Positions 1 to 24,109 of a stretch of 26,617 nt of DNA are shown one piece after another (positions within the stretch are counted from its first letter, which is position 1; each line of letters begins with the position of its first letter). Under the pieces are notes generated by a model. The model was not told the DNA's origin. It saw only the letters and a program-made list of their open reading frames with translations, and did not search any database. Made by a program: the position numbers and the translations under genes. Source of the stretch: a virus (Duplodnaviria > Caudoviricetes); the IMG/VR virus record IMGVR_UViG_3300031953_000087, positions 1 through 26,617 of that record, one strand, 5' to 3'.

Positions 1-14
1 GTTTTGATTCGACC

Positions 15-29
15 GCGCGACCCTCGCGC
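15..29. repeat. Inverted repeat GCGCGA-ccc-TCGCGC just upstream of the terminase operon (candidate packaging or operator site)
   Basis: Perfect 6-bp inverted repeat seen directly, flanked by TCGA at 9-12 and 34-37. Function is inferred only from its position. Confidence 0.35.
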
Positions 30-52
30 AAACTCGATTGTTTGCCTTTGCT

Positions 53-87: not shown

Positions 88-933
88 ATGGCTAAAAATC
101 TAATCAGTCGCGTCGAATTAGCGCGCCGAGCTGGGGTCGCCCCGTCAAGCGTTACGAAGGCGTGCGCCGGCTCGTTAAAGAATTGTTGCACCGGGAAGCG
201 CGTCGACGCTGATCACCCGGACGTCGTCGCGTATATTGCAAGGCGCGAGCGCGCAACACGGGCGCCGGAGCTGCAGGGTATAGATCCGCTGTACGAGGAG
301 GCCGTCGATATACTGCGCGCCTGCCAGCGCCCTACGCAGACCGCCTTACGCAAGCCGCTGAACATCGGCGACAAGCGAGCGGCGACGCTGTTCGGTCTGG
401 TCAAGGCGACCGGGATCCTCGACGCCCCTGAACCGGACCCGGAGCCCGAACCCGTGGCCACGCCGGCAACCCGGGCCAATCCGCGAGGATGGGCCGCCCG
501 ACGCGAAACCAGAAAACGCGAGACGCCCATCCCCCACGACGATCAGATCTTTGCGGTACCGGAAGACATCCAAGCGTTCGCCGACATGACGCTGCGCGAG
601 CTGGTCGAGAAATTCGGGACCGACATCCGTTTCCTCGATTGGCTGAAAGCGACCAAGTCGATCGAGGACATCAACGAAAAACGGCTCAAGAACGCGGAGA
701 CGAAAGGCGAGCTCGTCAGCCGCCAGCTCGTCCGCCACGGGATCCTCGACCCGATCGAATCCGCACACGTCAAACTGCTAACCGACGGGGCGAAAACAAT
801 CGCCAGGCGCGCAACAGCGATGCACGGCTCCGGCCGCGACATGGAAGACATTGAGAAATTCGTCGCCGATCAGATCACGTCATTTCTGCGGCCGATGAAA
901 GCAAAAATCGCGAGGACGTTAAAAAATGCCTAG
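88..933 (+). CDS. terS: Terminase small subunit candidate (N-terminal HTH, internal FtsK-gamma-like domain, Nu1-like C-terminal region)
   Basis: Lies immediately upstream of, and overlaps, the GpA-type TerL. N-terminal HTH ISRVELARRAGVAPSSVTK. C-terminal 'RLKNAETKGELVSR' resembles lambda-type TerS coiled coils. Start moved from TTG 4 to ATG 88. Confidence 0.7.
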   Translation: MAKNLISRVELARRAGVAPSSVTKACAGSLKNCCTGKRVDADHPDVVAYIARRERATRAPELQGIDPLYEEAVDILRACQRPTQTALRKPLNIGDKRAATLFGLVKATGILDAPEPDPEPEPVATPATRANPRGWAARRETRKRETPIPHDDQIFAVPEDIQAFADMTLRELVEKFGTDIRFLDWLKATKSIEDINEKRLKNAETKGELVSRQLVRHGILDPIESAHVKLLTDGAKTIARRATAMHGSGRDMEDIEKFVADQITSFLRPMKAKIARTLKNA

Positions 934-2908
934 CTTGCAAGACATCGGCGCCGACTGGATCCTGGCCGAGATCGACGGGCTAACGGATGAAATTATTCAC
1001 GTCACGCCGACCGCCTACAACGAGGAGCACCGCTATCTGCCCGAGAGCGTGACCTCGATCCCCGGGTACCTGCGCTATGACGTCAATCCGTTTATGCGCG
1101 AAATCGTGGACTGTTTCGACATCGACAGCCCGGTCCGCGAGGTCAATTTAAAAAAGGGCGTCCAGATCACCTACACGACCGCGCTCGAATCCGGGATCCT
1201 GTATTTCGCTGGCCACGTCGGCACGCTGCCTATGATGTTTATGACCGCCGACCGGGAGCTGGCGAAAGCGCGGATCGAGAACAACTTGATCCCGATGTTT
1301 AATCAATCCGGAATGGCCGACATAATCCGCTCAAGCGACGAGGGCAACACGCGGAAAACCGGCAAGACCGCAAACCATTTGCAGTTCGCCAAGGGGGCTT
1401 ATCTGGTCCCGTTCGGCGCGAGGAACGCGGACAAGATGCGGAGCTATTCGATCGCAATTCTGCTGAAAGATGAAATCGACGCCTGGCCTGCGGTCGTCGG
1501 CAAGGACGGCGACCCGGACGCGTTAAGCGATGATCGCTGCTCCGCGTATTGGGAGCGCCGGAAAATATTCCGCGGCTCGACTCCGCTGCTAATGCCCGCC
1601 AGCAAAATCGAAGCGCAATACCGCCGAGGCGACCAGCGCAAATACATGGTTCTCTGCAAGTCCTGCGGGTTCGCCCAGCACCTGCGATGGGAGACCGTGG
1701 ACAAAGAGACCGGCGTCGTCGGGGGCTTCCAGTGGGAGACCGAACAGGGCTCGCTCATCCTCGAGTCGGTTCGCTACTGCTGCCAGAATTGCGGGCATGA
1801 GCATTTTGAGCACGACAAGGAACGACTGTTCAGTGAGGACCACGGCGCGCACTGGCTGGCCACGGCCCGCCCTGCCGAGCCTGGGATCCGGTCGTACCAC
1901 CTGCCGGCCCTGTACTCGCCGATCGGAATGCAGCCGTGGTACAAATGCGTTTCGGCGTACCTGAGCGGGTTTGACCCGGTCGAGCGCAAGGTCCGCGACA
2001 TCGGTAAATATCAGGTTTTTTATAATAACATCCTGGCCGAGCCGTTTGAGGTCATGGGCTCGAAAGTCCGGTTTACTAGCGTGTCGGCTCACCGCCGGGC
2101 GGTTTACCGCTGCGGCCAGATCCCGAACAACTACGCCGCGACTTACTCCGGCTCGCCGATCCTGTTCCTGACCTGCGAGGTCGACGTCCAGAAATTGAAC
2201 CTCGCGGTCGCTGTCATGGGCTGGACTCGGGACTTGCGTTGTTACGTAATCGATTACTGGCGGTTCGAAGATGCCGACTGCAGCGAGATCAGTTCCTCGG
2301 CCTGGGGGCGGTTGCGCGAGCTGGTCGAGGAGGCGGTCTATACGGCCGACGACGGCAAGCAATACCGAATCGCGATCACGCTAGTCGATGCCGGCTACGC
2401 AAACGACACGGTTACGACATTCTGCGCGGACTACGCAACCGGCGTTTACCCAATCCTCGGCCGCGACCGGGCAGCAAAAAATCAGCGGATCCAAGAATTC
2501 GCCGAGTTCAAAACGCAATCGGGAACGATCGGGTACCGGATCCTAGTCGATCACTACAAAGACCGGCTCGCAACCGTCCTGCGCCGGGACTGGACCGAGG
2601 ATTCTGGCCTGCAAAGCCCGTATCATTTCAACGCACCCGTGGACATGACCGACGCGGCGCTCAAGGAATTGACGATCGAGAGCCGGCGCGAGAAAAACGA
2701 CGGGCGCGGCAACGTTACGTACTACTGGTACCGGCCGGGAAACGCTCGACAGGAGCTCTGGGATCTGCTCGGGTACGGACACGCGGCGGTCGAGATCATG
2801 GCATATTCGATTTGTATCCAGCATTTTCAGCTTGAAACGATCGACTGGCCTCGGTTCTGGGACTACGTCGAAGCCGAGAAACTTTACTTTACCGAGCCGC
2901 GCGCATAA
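926..2908 (+). CDS. terL: Terminase large subunit, lambda GpA family
   Basis: PFMREIVD, Walker A-like KKGVQITYT, Walker B LLKDEID, GSTP coupling motif, Zn ribbon CKSC...CQNC, nuclease acidic motifs VDVQ and VDAGY; 660 aa. Confidence 0.95.
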   Translation: MPSLQDIGADWILAEIDGLTDEIIHVTPTAYNEEHRYLPESVTSIPGYLRYDVNPFMREIVDCFDIDSPVREVNLKKGVQITYTTALESGILYFAGHVGTLPMMFMTADRELAKARIENNLIPMFNQSGMADIIRSSDEGNTRKTGKTANHLQFAKGAYLVPFGARNADKMRSYSIAILLKDEIDAWPAVVGKDGDPDALSDDRCSAYWERRKIFRGSTPLLMPASKIEAQYRRGDQRKYMVLCKSCGFAQHLRWETVDKETGVVGGFQWETEQGSLILESVRYCCQNCGHEHFEHDKERLFSEDHGAHWLATARPAEPGIRSYHLPALYSPIGMQPWYKCVSAYLSGFDPVERKVRDIGKYQVFYNNILAEPFEVMGSKVRFTSVSAHRRAVYRCGQIPNNYAATYSGSPILFLTCEVDVQKLNLAVAVMGWTRDLRCYVIDYWRFEDADCSEISSSAWGRLRELVEEAVYTADDGKQYRIAITLVDAGYANDTVTTFCADYATGVYPILGRDRAAKNQRIQEFAEFKTQSGTIGYRILVDHYKDRLATVLRRDWTEDSGLQSPYHFNAPVDMTDAALKELTIESRREKNDGRGNVTYYWYRPGNARQELWDLLGYGHAAVEIMAYSICIQHFQLETIDWPRFWDYVEAEKLYFTEPRA

Positions 2909-3203: not shown

Positions 3204-4900
3204 CTAAACCGAGCTTTCTACAGCGGGCGATCAATAGCGTATGGCACGCGACGCACCCGGCGACCGCCGACAGCGCAGCAACCGAAGCGACCGCCGTCGA
3301 CGACTTGAAGCCGTTCGCGTATATGGGCAACACCGGCCCCGCGCCCGTGGTCAATACGTGGATGGACGGCGAGAAATTTTTCGGCGGGTTCGGCGCAACC
3401 GAGCTGCAGACCGTTGATTACTGGACGCTGCGCCAGCGCTCCGCCCAGCTGTTCAATGAAAACTTATATGCGCGCGGTTTGATCCGGCGTCTAATCACGA
3501 ACGAGATAAACACGGGCTTGACGCCCGAGGCGGCGCCGGACGAGCAGATCATCGGAGTTGCCGAGGACAGTCTCAACGACTGGACAGAGCTCACCGAGAA
3601 CCGTTTCAACATCTGGGGCAAACAGGCCGAGGTCTGCGACCATCATAAACGCTACACGTTTGGCGCGATCCAGCGGGCGGCCCGAGCCGAGGCGCTGATC
3701 GCTGGCGACGTCTTGGTCGTCCTGCGGATTTCTCCGAGCACCCGAATGCCAACTATTCAGCTTGTCCCGGGCGAAAAGGTCCGGACGCCGCTCGGAGGTA
3801 ACGAGGGGCTACGCGTAGGGCATACGATAACCTACGGCGTCGAGCAGGACGCGAGCGGGCGAGTGGTCGCGCATTGGGTCACCCAGGCCGACGGGGGCAG
3901 CAAACGCCTGCCAGCGTTTGGCGCGCGCACAGGCCGCCGTATTTCTTGGCTGGTCTACGGTACCGACAAACGCCTCGGAGACGTCCGCGGGCAGCCGTTG
4001 CTGTCTTTGGTCATGCAGTCGTTGAAAGAGGTCGACCGGTACCGCGACAGCGCCCAGCGCAAAGCCGTGGTCAACTCAATTCTGGCAATGTACATCAAGA
4101 AAACCGAGGCGAAAGCGGGGACGCTGCCCGTCTCGAACGGCGCAGTCCGACGCGACACCGCGCAGACGACCGACGGCGATGGCACGCCCCGCCAGTTTAA
4201 CCTTGCGAACCAGATCCCCGGCGTTGTCATGGAGGAACTGCAGCAAGGCGAGGAGCCGGTCGGGTTCCATAGTCAGGGGACCGACGTCAATTTCGGGGAG
4301 TTTGAGCGGGCGCTAATTCAATCCGTCGCCTGGGCAAACGAGGTACCCCCGGAGATCCTGACGCTTGCTTTCTCGAATAATTATTCCGCCAGCCAAGCCG
4401 CAATTAACGAGTTTAAGATTTACTTGAATAAGATTTGGACCGATTTCGGCGAGACGTTCTGCTCGCCGATTTATCAAGAATGGCTGATCAGCGAAGCGCT
4501 GCAGCAAAAGATCCGATCGCCGGGCATGCTGGAAGCCTGGCGGGATCCGCAAAAATACGACGTCTTTGGCGCGTGGACGACCGTCGATTGGTACGGCTCG
4601 ATTAAGCCGTCGACCGACATGCTGAAACAGGTCAAGGGCTCGGACTTGCTGGTCGCTGGCGGATACTCTACCCGGGCCCGCGAGGCGCGCATCACCACCG
4701 GGACAAAGTTCTCGAAAAACATAAAGCGCTTGAAGCGCGAGAATCAGCTGCTCGCCGATGCGATGCGGCCGACGCTTGAGCTCGAACGAGAGTTCGCTGG
4801 CGGCAACGGCGGCGACGCGGCGGGCGCAATTAGGGCACTGAAAGAGGGGACCGCCTCGGTCCTTTCACTCGTTGAGGACATGCAAGATGGCAGCGCGTAG
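3197..4900 (+). CDS. Portal protein, lambda family
   Basis: LRQRSAQLFNEN, GDVLV, VRGQPLL and NYSASQAA motifs of lambda-type portals; 567 aa; gene order. Confidence 0.93.
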   Translation: MVTKPSFLQRAINSVWHATHPATADSAATEATAVDDLKPFAYMGNTGPAPVVNTWMDGEKFFGGFGATELQTVDYWTLRQRSAQLFNENLYARGLIRRLITNEINTGLTPEAAPDEQIIGVAEDSLNDWTELTENRFNIWGKQAEVCDHHKRYTFGAIQRAARAEALIAGDVLVVLRISPSTRMPTIQLVPGEKVRTPLGGNEGLRVGHTITYGVEQDASGRVVAHWVTQADGGSKRLPAFGARTGRRISWLVYGTDKRLGDVRGQPLLSLVMQSLKEVDRYRDSAQRKAVVNSILAMYIKKTEAKAGTLPVSNGAVRRDTAQTTDGDGTPRQFNLANQIPGVVMEELQQGEEPVGFHSQGTDVNFGEFERALIQSVAWANEVPPEILTLAFSNNYSASQAAINEFKIYLNKIWTDFGETFCSPIYQEWLISEALQQKIRSPGMLEAWRDPQKYDVFGAWTTVDWYGSIKPSTDMLKQVKGSDLLVAGGYSTRAREARITTGTKFSKNIKRLKRENQLLADAMRPTLELEREFAGGNGGDAAGAIRALKEGTASVLSLVEDMQDGSA

Positions 4901-5630
4901 CGTTTTTAATATACAAAACGACGTCCCGGCTGCGATTGGCCTCGGGCTCATAAAAGAGGCTAATCAGTACGAGGTTTTCGGCGCCCGCACGGGCCTAATT
5001 AGCGGCGTCGAGGAGGACATTTCTTTCTTGGCGGCGGACACAATACCGCTGCCGAGCAACAGCGGCCAACAGCTGGAGGTCGTCAGCACGGACGCGGCCG
5101 ACACGCAGCTGATCGAGTTCGAGGCCCTTGGTCCGGGCGCGGTAGTAATTCCAAATTTTTCTGTCAACTTGAACGGGACGACGCCGGTCCTGCTGCCCGA
5201 GGCGCTAATATCCCGGATTAACGAAATGGAAAACGCTGACCTGACCCCGTTCCTCGGGACCGTGAACATACAAGCCGCAGGCGCCGGGGCAATTTTCGGA
5301 ACCATGCGGCCGGAAGACCAGCAGATGAACCAGTGTATGTATACGGTTCCGGCGGGCAGACGGTGGCTCATAAAAAGATTGATTGGTACGCTGCAGCGGT
5401 CGACAGGAACAGAAAACGATCTAACGCTGTCGATTCTTTTTAAGAAATTCGACGGCACGGCCTGGCGTCGGCCGTTCGCGTTTGGCCTGCAGCGCAGCGG
5501 CGACTCAAGTTTCGATATTGAAAATGATTACCCGAGCGTGGGGGCCGGCCCGGTTGACATTAAACTGACCGCGCGGTCCAGCGTGGCCGGCGCGGACGTG
5601 TCGGGACGGATAAACGGCCTTTTACTTTGA
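4887..5630 (+). CDS. Hypothetical beta-rich phage protein inserted between portal and protease
   Basis: GAGGA RBS (4874-4878) before ATG 4887; 247 aa filling the gap; motifs LNGTTPV, SRIN, YTVPAG. Confidence 0.75.
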   Translation: MAARSVFNIQNDVPAAIGLGLIKEANQYEVFGARTGLISGVEEDISFLAADTIPLPSNSGQQLEVVSTDAADTQLIEFEALGPGAVVIPNFSVNLNGTTPVLLPEALISRINEMENADLTPFLGTVNIQAAGAGAIFGTMRPEDQQMNQCMYTVPAGRRWLIKRLIGTLQRSTGTENDLTLSILFKKFDGTAWRRPFAFGLQRSGDSSFDIENDYPSVGAGPVDIKLTARSSVAGADVSGRINGLLL

Positions 5631-19710: not shown

Positions 19711-21825
19711 ATGGCCATCAATCCCGAAACAAAGTACCCCGGAAAAATAACGCCGAGCAGCGCCGAATACCCGTATGGCAAAGCTAGGAATATTACGGTC
19801 CCGGGAGACGGTACGGGGACGCCCTGGGAAGCCGCACTGGTAAACGATATATTCGGGTTTCAGCAAGCCGTTTTAAGCGCGGCTAACATCACGCCGTCGG
19901 GCAATCCGGAGGAAGTGGGCGCGTCTCAATACCTTGAAGGTCTAAAACGGATCCTGCTGCTACCTGTCGGGGCGGTATCGGAGAATTTCGCGGGGGCTTT
20001 CGTGGCGGACGGTCTCCGAGTCCAGGCTGCAGGATGGTTGCCCGCTACGCAGATCGGCGGCGGGGTTTTTGTCGGCCGTCAAAGCGTGGCAAAATCACTG
20101 CATGACGGCGGCAAGTACATAAGCCCAACGGTTCCGGCGGCTAGCGCCCAGCCCGGCGCCGATCTAAACGCCCAGATCGCCAACTTTAACGCGGGCGCCG
20201 GGGAGACGGATCCGGGCGGAAACGGCGTGTATGTCCGCACCGATTCCATTTTAACGCCGCGCGCCTATGGTGCGCAGCTTAACGGCGTAGCGGACGACAC
20301 CGCCGCGCTTGCGTCCTATACGGGCCTGGCCGACGAAAAGGGAGCCGATCTTGTTAATTACACACCCACGCAGACCGTGGCAGAGGCTCTTGCGGCCGCC
20401 GGCGGCGGGCCGGCTGCTTTGGCTGCTGATCTTGACACTATCGCAGAATCCGGCGCCTTTTATGCCGACGTGACCACAGCAAACCGGCCGGATGGGATCG
20501 TCGGAACAGTAAACAGCATCTATGTCGATGCGAATACGGCCTCGCAGCATTTCATTGGATACAGCACTAACCGGGCGTTGTTTCGCGGGCGCTCCGCTGG
20601 CGTTTGGGGCCCGTGGTACGAAGTAACCGCGCAAGAAATATTTAGCGCTGGCTGGCCGACTATTACCGGCGACAATTTGCTGTCGGAAGTCAACACGTCG
20701 TCAGTCGCTGGCTGGACTATTGAAAACGCAAATACAGTATTTACTAGCAGCGCCAGCACTTTAATATTAGACAACGACGGCGGCGGGAAGGGGTTTGTTA
20801 ACCGCGACGTCGCTATGGCTACGAGCGGGGATTACATTGTCTACGCAAAACTTTCATCCGAGTCGGTATCTGGGTCATATAACACTGTTCAGATCGGTCC
20901 GGCAGGTGGCGGAAGGGCGATTCTCTCGCTTGGGTATAACTGGGCTACAGGATCGGAGGAGCAAAACCGTATTTCCGCAGGTTTCCGCAACGGGGCCAAC
21001 GCAGTTGTAGGTATAGCGGGGCCGGTCATCGACTACTCCCTGGGACCGGTTGAACTGGCACTGCTTTACAATAACGAATTTTCTACAGGCACGCTTTTTG
21101 TTAAAGAGTCCGGCGTTTGGGTCGGGTACGGCGCAGTTCAAGCTGACGACCCTTTCCGAAACAAGTTTCGACTTTTACAAGGCGGAGACGCTAATGCTGC
21201 GTTTACTGTTCACGAGCTGTTTGTCGCTAAACCGAACATTGTTTCAATCGGCGACAGCATCACCGAGGGCGCGACGCTATACGCGCCGGATTACTTAGAG
21301 GGGCTGACAAACTACGCCAGCACCTACCAAGGGTATGCAAACATATACACCAATGTCCGCAATAATATAATTGTGAACAAAGGCATTGGATCGCAGAATT
21401 CCTCGCAGATAGATACTAGAATCGCGGGTGTACTAACTGACGCGAATCCCGCAGTCGTGTTTTTGCAAGCGAGCGCAAACGATTTCGGGGCCGGGTTTAC
21501 GCTATCGCAGAGAACAGTAAACATTCAAAACACCATCGACAAAAGCGTAAACGCCGGCGCGAAAGTCGCATTGCTTAACGCGGTCTATCCGAACGCGGAC
21601 GCCGGCGGAATATTCCCGGACGCGCCCGATTATTATAGGGATTGGTGGGAGATTGAGCTCGGCAACATTACCGGGGCTAATATTAAAATTGATTGGATGG
21701 AGGGCTCCGGGATACTAAGCGGCGGAACCTACATGGACACCGCGTTTACGCAGTCCGACGGGGTGCACCCAAACCCAACAGGGTACGCATTGCTGGGCGA
21801 TTACATCGAATCGCTGGAGCCATAA
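19711..21825 (+). CDS. Tail fibre / receptor-binding protein with C-terminal SGNH(GDSL) hydrolase
   Basis: Follows the baseplate genes; GAGGTG RBS; SGNH blocks GDSIT, NKGIGS, ASAND and DGVHPN; pyocin-knob-like segment ending WGPWYEV. Confidence 0.88.
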   Translation: MAINPETKYPGKITPSSAEYPYGKARNITVPGDGTGTPWEAALVNDIFGFQQAVLSAANITPSGNPEEVGASQYLEGLKRILLLPVGAVSENFAGAFVADGLRVQAAGWLPATQIGGGVFVGRQSVAKSLHDGGKYISPTVPAASAQPGADLNAQIANFNAGAGETDPGGNGVYVRTDSILTPRAYGAQLNGVADDTAALASYTGLADEKGADLVNYTPTQTVAEALAAAGGGPAALAADLDTIAESGAFYADVTTANRPDGIVGTVNSIYVDANTASQHFIGYSTNRALFRGRSAGVWGPWYEVTAQEIFSAGWPTITGDNLLSEVNTSSVAGWTIENANTVFTSSASTLILDNDGGGKGFVNRDVAMATSGDYIVYAKLSSESVSGSYNTVQIGPAGGGRAILSLGYNWATGSEEQNRISAGFRNGANAVVGIAGPVIDYSLGPVELALLYNNEFSTGTLFVKESGVWVGYGAVQADDPFRNKFRLLQGGDANAAFTVHELFVAKPNIVSIGDSITEGATLYAPDYLEGLTNYASTYQGYANIYTNVRNNIIVNKGIGSQNSSQIDTRIAGVLTDANPAVVFLQASANDFGAGFTLSQRTVNIQNTIDKSVNAGAKVALLNAVYPNADAGGIFPDAPDYYRDWWEIELGNITGANIKIDWMEGSGILSGGTYMDTAFTQSDGVHPNPTGYALLGDYIESLEP

Positions 21826-22856: not shown

Positions 22857-23210
22857 ATGCCGAGATTTAGTGACGAGCAGCTAGTCCAGCTCCGCCAGGA
22901 GTTCGAGGAGCATAAAGAGGAGCAGGCGCTTTGCTGGGAGCGCCAGGAAGAACGATGGGAGCAACTGGCTGTTATGGTCGAGCAGAACACGCAAACGACC
23001 CGTGAGCTCGCCGAAAGTGTCTGCAAGATAGCGGACAGCACAGCCGGCGTAGTTCGGATTTACGACGATGTTAAAAGCGCCGCGCGGGTCGGCGGATCGG
23101 TTCAGGCCTTTTTGATATGGCTCGGCAAATTGGGGGCCGTGGGGACGGCGTTGGTCGTCGCGATTCGTTGGATCCTTGACAACCTACCGCCCCCAGGCGC
23201 CGGCGGTTAA
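22857..23210 (+). CDS. Coiled-coil protein with a C-terminal transmembrane segment (putative lysis accessory)
   Basis: Glu/Gln-rich helical N-terminus and hydrophobic FLIWLGKLGAVGTALVVAIRWIL; last gene of the lysis cassette. Confidence 0.6.
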   Translation: MPRFSDEQLVQLRQEFEEHKEEQALCWERQEERWEQLAVMVEQNTQTTRELAESVCKIADSTAGVVRIYDDVKSAARVGGSVQAFLIWLGKLGAVGTALVVAIRWILDNLPPPGAGG

Positions 23211-24109
23211 TCGTCGCCAATGACCGACCGATACTCTCCGCCGAATGCCTCCAACAGAATCGAGAAGCACCGCAGCAGCTCGCGGGCCGTGAGGTGAAAC
23301 TCGGCATGCAGCAGCGCGGCGTGATCGTCTGAATCCACATCCTCCAATTTCTCGCGGATCCGGTCCTGCCATTTAATTGATCGCAGGCTCAAGTCCTCGC
23401 CGATCGTGGCGTTCAGGCTGCCGTCGAATTCCGCGTTAAGGGTAACGACCTGTTTCCCGGCGTTTACATGGACCAGAACCTCCAAGCCAAACAGATCGAG
23501 CCCTTTGACCTTGACGCTGCCGGCCTGATCGCCGAGTCCGTGCATTTCGCAAGCCTCGCCGGGGACGATCTCGTCGGGCCGCTCGACATCCCCGGACAGC
23601 CATCCGGTCATCGTAAAGCGCGGCGAGGCCTGAACCGCTGCCGGTCGCACCGGTAGAGACCCGAGAGCCCGTCGCAGCTCCGAGAGAAGCCCCTCGGCCT
23701 TTCCAGCGCCTTGACTGTCGACGACGACGGTCCCGCTTTTCGGGTCGATAAACGCCAGCATATGGGTCGTCTTAATAAACGCCCGGGGCAGCAGTTCGAG
23801 CTCAACCTGCTCTTTTATCTCTCGCATTTCCCGGCGGCCGATAATCCGGTCCGTCTCCCGGGCTCTCTCGTTAGCGTAGCGCGTGACCACGTGGCCGGGG
23901 AGCATACGCTCGTCCGTTCGCAGGCAGACCAGCTGCAGGCCGTCAGAGGCGACCACGAGCTGATCGTCGACGAGGGGCACCCAACCGGAACGCGCGCGCT
24001 CCTGGGGGCCGATCGGTTTCATCTGGTACGGCTGCAGCGCCTCGGCCAACTGATCGCCGGAGAGCTCAAACGGGCGGGTAAACCGCCAGAATCGTGCGTT
24101 CTTGAACAT
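23207..24109 (-). CDS. rdgC: Recombination-associated protein RdgC
   Basis: MFKNA, GWVP, ERMLPGHVV, LLPRAF, LLSELRRALGSLPV and C-terminal AFGGE; 300 aa matches RdgC length. Confidence 0.93.
   Translation of the reverse strand: MFKNARFWRFTRPFELSGDQLAEALQPYQMKPIGPQERARSGWVPLVDDQLVVASDGLQLVCLRTDERMLPGHVVTRYANERARETDRIIGRREMREIKEQVELELLPRAFIKTTHMLAFIDPKSGTVVVDSQGAGKAEGLLSELRRALGSLPVRPAAVQASPRFTMTGWLSGDVERPDEIVPGEACEMHGLGDQAGSVKVKGLDLFGLEVLVHVNAGKQVVTLNAEFDGSLNATIGEDLSLRSIKWQDRIREKLEDVDSDDHAALLHAEFHLTARELLRCFSILLEAFGGEYRSVIGDD

Follow-up and report, generated by a model that had tools for sequence, protein, structure and literature searches.

The gene at positions 88..933 (+) of the window, by which we mean the whole 26,617-nt stretch of tailed-phage DNA analysed here (IMG/VR record IMGVR_UViG_3300031953_000087), encodes a 281-aa protein that is very probably the small terminase subunit (TerS) of a lambda-GpA-type phage. 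Residues 64-110 of this protein are an FtsK-gamma three-helix domain lacking the wing. The domain is optional in the TerS family and, where retained, is under purifying selection. We favour, at about even confidence, the reading that the wingless gamma is an optional second DNA grip of low specificity and not a reader of packaging site or direction. A TerS-gamma fusion as such is already known (PMC8190038); what is new here is a TerS of the GpA type with an internal, wingless gamma.

The peptide that the earlier note had quoted for positions 283-453 is exact: it forms residues 66-122 of the ORF and is followed by PEPDPEPEP. Its assignment to the FtsK-gamma family also held up. Pfam FtsK_gamma matches residues 66-114 of the whole protein (E=9.2e-5) and the segment alone (E=7e-6, 26.1 bits, profile positions 4-50 of 63), with scores of 22.5-26.1 bits that lie below the curated cut-off of 30.6. 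Among 37 related records, 20 match the same family, 18 of them above the cut-off, with one copy each and always in the TerS gene. A PDB sequence search with the segment returned six matches, all of them FtsK gamma (best E=9e-4), and a profile of 148 family rows matched the E. coli gamma domain 2j5p at E=8e-10. The top ten rows of a Foldseek PDB search with the AlphaFold model were likewise FtsK gamma (rmsd 1.0-1.5, 45-48 columns) at non-significant E values of 0.3-0.7, and a VIA structure comparison of the model placed 5dcf (Z 7.8) and 2ve8 (Z 6.9) in its top rows. The three-helix core of the model superposes on solved gamma domains at an rmsd of 1.0-1.5 over 45-50 residues, with helices predicted at residues 69-78, 84-91 and 95-108. 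The domain spans 277..417 (+).

Of the winged helix described in the earlier note, the gamma three-helix core stands and the wing does not. Two AlphaFold models show no strands for a beta-hairpin after helix 3, and the wing motif was found in none of the 206 gamma-bearing family proteins. The gamma wing takes part in KOPS binding. Its place here is occupied by a Pro/Glu-rich linker at 418..480 (+), predicted to be flexible (pLDDT 54-69); across the 206 proteins, the 15 residues downstream of gamma are 25% Pro. The domain carries a net charge of +5 in the window protein, and in the family the median is +4, with at least +3 in 93%.

The identification of the gene as TerS, made in the earlier note from its position, is borne out by its neighbours and its relatives. 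The ORF overlaps by 8 nt a large terminase (TerL) gene of lambda GpA type at 926..2908 (+; Pfam GpA_ATPase E=5e-43, GpA_nuclease E=1e-34), and TerL is the next long ORF after TerS in 74 of 78 family loci, with the identical 8-nt overlap in 42. Genes for a head-tail adaptor, a lambda-type portal, an S49 protease, a decoration protein and the major capsid protein lie downstream of TerL. The PHROG TerS family phrog_57 is matched by the window protein (E=9e-4) and by 91 of the 148 family members (best E=7.8e-10); no Pfam TerS family, Terminase_2 included, was matched among the 148. Between the portal and head protease genes lies a 252-aa gene (4872-5630, +) that has no Pfam family and a weak match to PHROG 8198 (E=0.002).

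The protein is built of an N-terminal helix-turn-helix (HTH) domain, gamma, the Pro-rich linker, a basic helix and a helical C-terminal domain. The HTH (residues 4-57; 97..258, +; pLDDT about 90) is of the MerR/Xis-like winged type, is predicted to be the main reader of cos, and remains intact in gamma-less relatives. It matches BldC (prob 0.94), and its VIA comparison with the N-terminus of lambda TerS, chain 6hn7_B (PMC6739421), gave a middling score (Z 5.5, rmsd 4.5, 64 aligned); lambda 1J9I was absent from the fold-search matches listed. The conserved C-terminal domain (residues 154-281; 547..930, +) consists of long helices (179-206, 212-247 and 252-280 in the AlphaFold model) and is predicted to serve oligomerisation and TerL binding, the latter by extrapolation from lambda Nu1. 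The Nu1-like C-terminus claimed in the earlier note has no basis beyond the phrog_57 TerS match; HHalign against HK629 Nu1 was non-significant (E=0.11). Fold matches of the C-terminal domain were generic helical hairpins only, and we gave no weight to the phage 44RR TerS (Z 7.2) among them.

Packaging in this phage group is predicted to involve a 15-nt 5' cohesive end (cosN); in the window it would lie at 1..15 (+), as the genome's left physical terminus, 72 nt from the TerS start. The prediction follows from shared fixed ends, a parallel in phi80 and lambda-like features of the site. The cos motif at window base 1 is the contig start in 45 of 75 family loci, and two Logan contigs terminate at that base. 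An identical 15-mer stands at both ends of 8 of 18 whole records, with a 16-mer in one more, and three additional contig ends fall on base 15 of it; such 15-nt ends were seen at contig ends L093, L099, L105, L108, L111, L116, L119 and L128. The phi80 record likewise carries its cos, an annotated 12-base 5' end, at both ends, and GGGTCCT lies 23 bases upstream in its cosQ region. In the family, a cosQ-like motif AGGTACT (GGGTCCT in G016) is found 23-25 nt upstream of cos, and the right part of the cos 15-mer varies, as described for the right half of lambda-like cos sites (PMC4669245). Headful pac packaging, called by PhageTerm for the distant relative PD0307 (PMC10132091), whose TerL is 40% identical to the window TerL, was set aside for the window clade, in which both contig ends are fixed and have 15 nt in common. 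Two contig starts at which TerL-like sequence is joined to the leader (L027 1-190 and L028 1-170) are probably chimeric assembly ends.

Next to cos, at 22..31 (+), lies the conserved leader motif CCTCGC.CAA, which by its position would be a cosB-like TerS site. The consensus of cos and leader is alike whether drawn from the 41 gamma-bearing loci or from the 8 that are gamma-less, so gamma is not required to define the cos site; the cosQ-like motif is likewise the same with or without gamma. The 22-24 nt spacer between AGGTACTG and the cos 15-mer is hypervariable yet rich in G/C runs (74% GC), even in AT-rich genomes (L001, L007, L010, L031, L051, L056, L073, L111 and others).

The family comprises 334 matches among 8000 scored candidates, and its representatives number 1205 at E<=0.001 and 317 at 1e-30. 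The suggestion in the earlier note that gamma might be a lineage-specific insertion fits its presence in part of the family: it is missing in 57 of 162 rows, scattered over the TerS and TerL trees. Among 148 newly listed representatives, 96 are full-length with gamma and 49 are without it, six of the latter with decayed remnants recognised by eye. A TerS tree was built from the HTH and C-terminal domains of 162 rows, of which 105 have gamma or a remnant of it; the trait changes on this tree 34 times (46.7 in shuffles), and strong branches force 11 of these changes. On a TerL tree of 51 of the 53 aligned rows (two with truncated TerS left out), 12 rows are without gamma and the trait changes 8 times, 5 of them forced, these counts treating gain and loss alike. 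A single-change history was found in 0 of 200 bootstrap TerL trees. Linkers of 14 to over 100 residues stand in gamma's place, and the 17 records (of 37) whose TerS is gamma-less, seven of which are complete or almost complete, yielded no separate stand-alone gamma gene. Presence of gamma has no association with genome GC (p=0.61). Given the scattered absence, the decayed remnants, the lack of a substitute gamma gene in those records and the unchanged cos, leader and cosQ, we conclude that gamma is dispensable in this family. One 336-aa protein (P0217), excluded from the TerS tree, has a duplicated C-terminal domain where gamma would be.

Private residues shared among 85 members (C76 in 69, G64 in 72 and an aromatic residue at 82 in 58) and a fixed HTH-gamma spacing of 17 residues in 46 of them suggest a common origin, and point to a single gain of gamma in the lineage followed by many losses. 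Across six non-overlapping pairs, dN/dS is 0.30 for gamma, close to the HTH value of 0.25; the linker stands at 0.42 and the C-terminal domain at 0.08. In the 85 distant members, gamma similarity is uncoupled from C-terminal-domain similarity (rho -0.03; HTH rho 0.22), which may reflect swapping or diversifying selection instead of plain descent.

Residue n of the window TerS corresponds to residue 1200+n of E. coli FtsK, a numbering checked at R1280, R1297 and R1300. FtsK R1300, E1303 and E1306 are required for KOPS recognition (PMC2680272), and at these positions the window protein has T100, G103 and K106, in a helix that reads GDKR rather than GYNR. At the XerD contacts Q1288, R1289, R1292 and N1296 (PMC5052618), it has R88, K89, N92 and K96. 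Of the 206 gamma-bearing proteins, 204 have R97, 37 (about 18%) have GYNR and 32 (about 16%) have the full XerD set (Q88, R89, R/K92, G94, N96). Positions 95-96 and 100 are variable, and near-identical phages switch between GYNRA and GWERA with the leader unchanged. The recognition helix is thus altered, as the earlier note had observed, but the new specificity proposed there does not hold as a fixed one: since positions 95-96 and 100 drift and only R97 is nearly invariant, the IGDKRAAT-type helix is best read as one point in a drifting range, with no fixed new code.

Fusion of gamma to TerS was described by Kazantseva et al. in 2021 for the Bacillus phages Sam46 and Sam112, whose TerS has gamma at its N-terminus (PMC8190038), so the earlier note's statement that it knew of no such description was mistaken; a PHROG label, FtsK/SpoIIIE-like, also existed. 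The Sam46/Sam112 protein (gp1, MN604698.1) resembles the window protein in having an FtsK-gamma within a small terminase, yet only gamma aligns (HHalign 93%, 49 columns) and the rest of TerS, and TerL, are dissimilar. In Sam46, gamma is N-terminal with a wing (GSKPREVLI) and goes with Terminase_2 and headful pac packaging, whereas in the window phage it is internal and wingless behind a lambda-like HTH, and is accompanied by a TerL of GpA type and a predicted 5' cos. Because TerS and TerL differ, the HTH is retained ahead of gamma and the wing is missing, the window fusion is, on these comparisons, independent of that in Sam46/Sam112. In the open-access literature we found no paper on a TerS-gamma fusion of the GpA type. 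The fusion therefore extends beyond the pair of Bacillus pac phages. A further terminase class unrelated to theirs (lambda-GpA, predicted cos) has gamma at another position and in another form, in a family that numbers hundreds of clusters.

Compared with the gamma domains of FtsK/SpoIIIE (PF09397; 2VE8/2VE9, 2J5P, 5DCF), the window domain is alike in its three-helix core and its DPLY and IG..RA motifs, but it has no wing and no FtsK motor, its KOPS and XerD contacts are mostly altered, and the genomes that carry it are not enriched in KOPS. Lambda gpNu1 shares the N-terminal winged HTH and a TerS gene overlapping GpA TerL, and lambda shares the 5' cohesive end at both record ends, the variable right cos half and the cosQ-like motif. 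The lambda end is 12 nt against 15, its cos-TerS distance about 177 nt against 72 and its TerS 181 residues against 281; there is no significant sequence match to Nu1, and gamma is extra in the window protein. The family corresponds over its full length to PHROG 13700 ('FtsK/SpoIIIE-like protein', E=1.6e-97), filed as a host-takeover gene. Its member in Shewanella phage SppYZU01, gp04, is hypothetical in GenBank, and neither is labelled TerS; our analysis re-annotates PHROG 13700 as TerS and predicts the 15-nt cohesive end for the phage group.

In the reading that we favour, the N-terminal HTH would recognise the conserved leader adjoining cos, and the basic gamma head tethered to each TerS subunit would add avidity for nearby DNA during terminase assembly. 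Gamma would have been gained once, possibly from a phage-borne pool such as the RdgC fusions, and lost many times. That gamma is functional where it is kept is supported by purifying selection, the retention of R97 and the retained basic charge. Three observations weigh against a grip of low specificity: the proportions with canonical GYNR and with the full XerD set exceed what non-specific binding needs; GGGNNGGG in the spacer is a possible specific site; and the uncoupling of gamma from the C-terminal domain may speak against plain descent.

An unlikely alternative is that gamma targets host DNA or host FtsK, competing for host KOPS, steering the terminase from or to host DNA or tuning the packaging of host DNA, with a helix that follows the host. 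The host-like GYNR helices would fit, as would the recurrence of gamma modules in further phage proteins such as the RdgC fusions, and a like idea was put forward for Sam46, whose authors proposed KOPS-like loading sites or mispackaging of host DNA (PMC8190038). Against it, the window protein lacks the three residues that KOPS recognition needs, most family members have drifted, the wing is absent, and a cos phage must start at cos. Equally unlikely, in our estimate, is a broader proposal, that unrelated terminases repeatedly capture gamma as a swappable second reading head, which here would read the cosQ-cos G tract or host KOPS, its helix diversifying against host FtsK or TerS-hijacking satellites; the GYNRA-to-GWERA switch in near-identical phages and the uncoupling of gamma from the rest of TerS would fit this.

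A sequence-specific reader of the G-rich tract at cos, or of polar motifs in the genome, that aids the choice of cut site or direction comes next in our ranking and is improbable. The tract itself is suggestive, as the spacer stays rich in G/C runs even where the genome is AT-rich, and 11 of 15 gamma-bearing spacers contain a KOPS-like octamer (<=1 mismatch), a level that 0 of 300 dinucleotide shuffles equalled. But the reversed KOPS is equally frequent (11/15), the KOPS-like octamers are oriented 5 plus and 5 minus, gamma-less spacers have them at a similar rate (5/8), and the G tract is missing in two of the four phages with canonical GYNRA. KOPS at the cos spacer was accordingly rejected as no better than its reverse. 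GGGNNGGG, in one orientation or the other, is present in the spacer of 10 of the 15 gamma-bearing phages and of 3 of the 8 gamma-less ones, the eight excluding L217, whose TerS is unreadable as a whole; this word may be a specific site and is a lead only.

For polar motifs, the three KOPS copies of the window all lie on the + strand. In 12 gamma-bearing records, however, KOPS is present in 30 copies against 32 for the reversed control, and its + strand lean is independent of gamma (13:5 with and 22:9 without). The strand-skewed octamers for which the earlier note had proposed a search did not emerge either. The polarised words found, by a test of low power for motifs under about 10 copies, are of 5-6 bases, several per genome, at the expected level on one strand and depleted on the other: CACCG 68:0 in G001, CGCAG 48:0 in G003 and CAGCAG 20:0 in SppYZU01, with 49 CACCG on the + and 6 on the - strand of the window. 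They track lineage and not the recognition helix, and a gamma-less genome has them too. No over-represented 7-mer common to and specific for gamma-bearing genomes stood out. The pooled words CAGGAG and GCAGGAGC were rejected as guide motifs because per-genome tests gave differing 5-6-mers wiped from one strand. With gamma-less relatives using the same cos as well, the evidence does not support the direction sensing or packaging-site choice that the earlier note had proposed for gamma, nor a part for it as direction sensor of the packaging motor.

The polarised words likely reflect avoidance of type III restriction, several systems at once, since they are depleted on one strand and include EcoP15I and PstII sites, and T7 evades EcoP15 through one-strand site orientation (PMC3874151). 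One-strand-depleted words were seen over whole records (G001, G003, G004, G005, W01, W03). Depletion of type III sites could help in host prediction.

That gamma is a near-neutral passenger, a folded spacer in an essential gene, we consider more improbable still. Its repeated loss, its decayed forms and the linkers that replace it are what a passenger would leave, but its dN/dS is near that of the HTH, its surface residue R97 hardly ever varies, its basic charge persists, and some two thirds of the family, a large and old one, still have it.

Least probable is a role in protein contact, in which gamma would activate XerD or bind some other protein, for instance in resolving or integrating phage DNA. 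The XerD-contact surface on gamma helices 2-3 and their loop lies off the wing and a 9-residue peptide suffices (PMC5052618), so a wingless domain could serve, and 32 of 206 relatives keep the contact set, but the XerCD contact raised in the earlier note is unlikely for the window protein, in which Q1288, R1292 and N1296 are missing and the key R1289 is replaced by K; the window has no XerD-arm-like 11-mer (<=1 mismatch), 11-mer matches in other genomes are without an inverted arm (by eye), and a tyrosine recombinase is present in 1 of 12 gamma-bearing against 2 of 7 gamma-less records. No dif-like site turned up, and no link of gamma to an integrase or dif was found.

The point of interest becomes why unrelated terminases capture gamma repeatedly. 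The closest cultured relative of the window phage is SppYZU01 (TerS gp04 57% and TerL 79% identical), and the natural pairs with and without gamma, together with this cultured phage, make the role of a phage-borne gamma directly testable. The stretch was found in brine metagenomes. Gamma is also present in other phage proteins, often annotated as RdgC; the RdgC gene of the window (23207-24109, -) is without gamma, that of many other phages has it, and gamma may pass from one phage gene to another by way of such fusions. Elsewhere in the window, the gene at 19711-21825 (+) encodes a tail-region protein of 704 aa that has an SGNH/GDSL esterase domain at its C-terminus and is likely a receptor-modifying tail fibre or spike.
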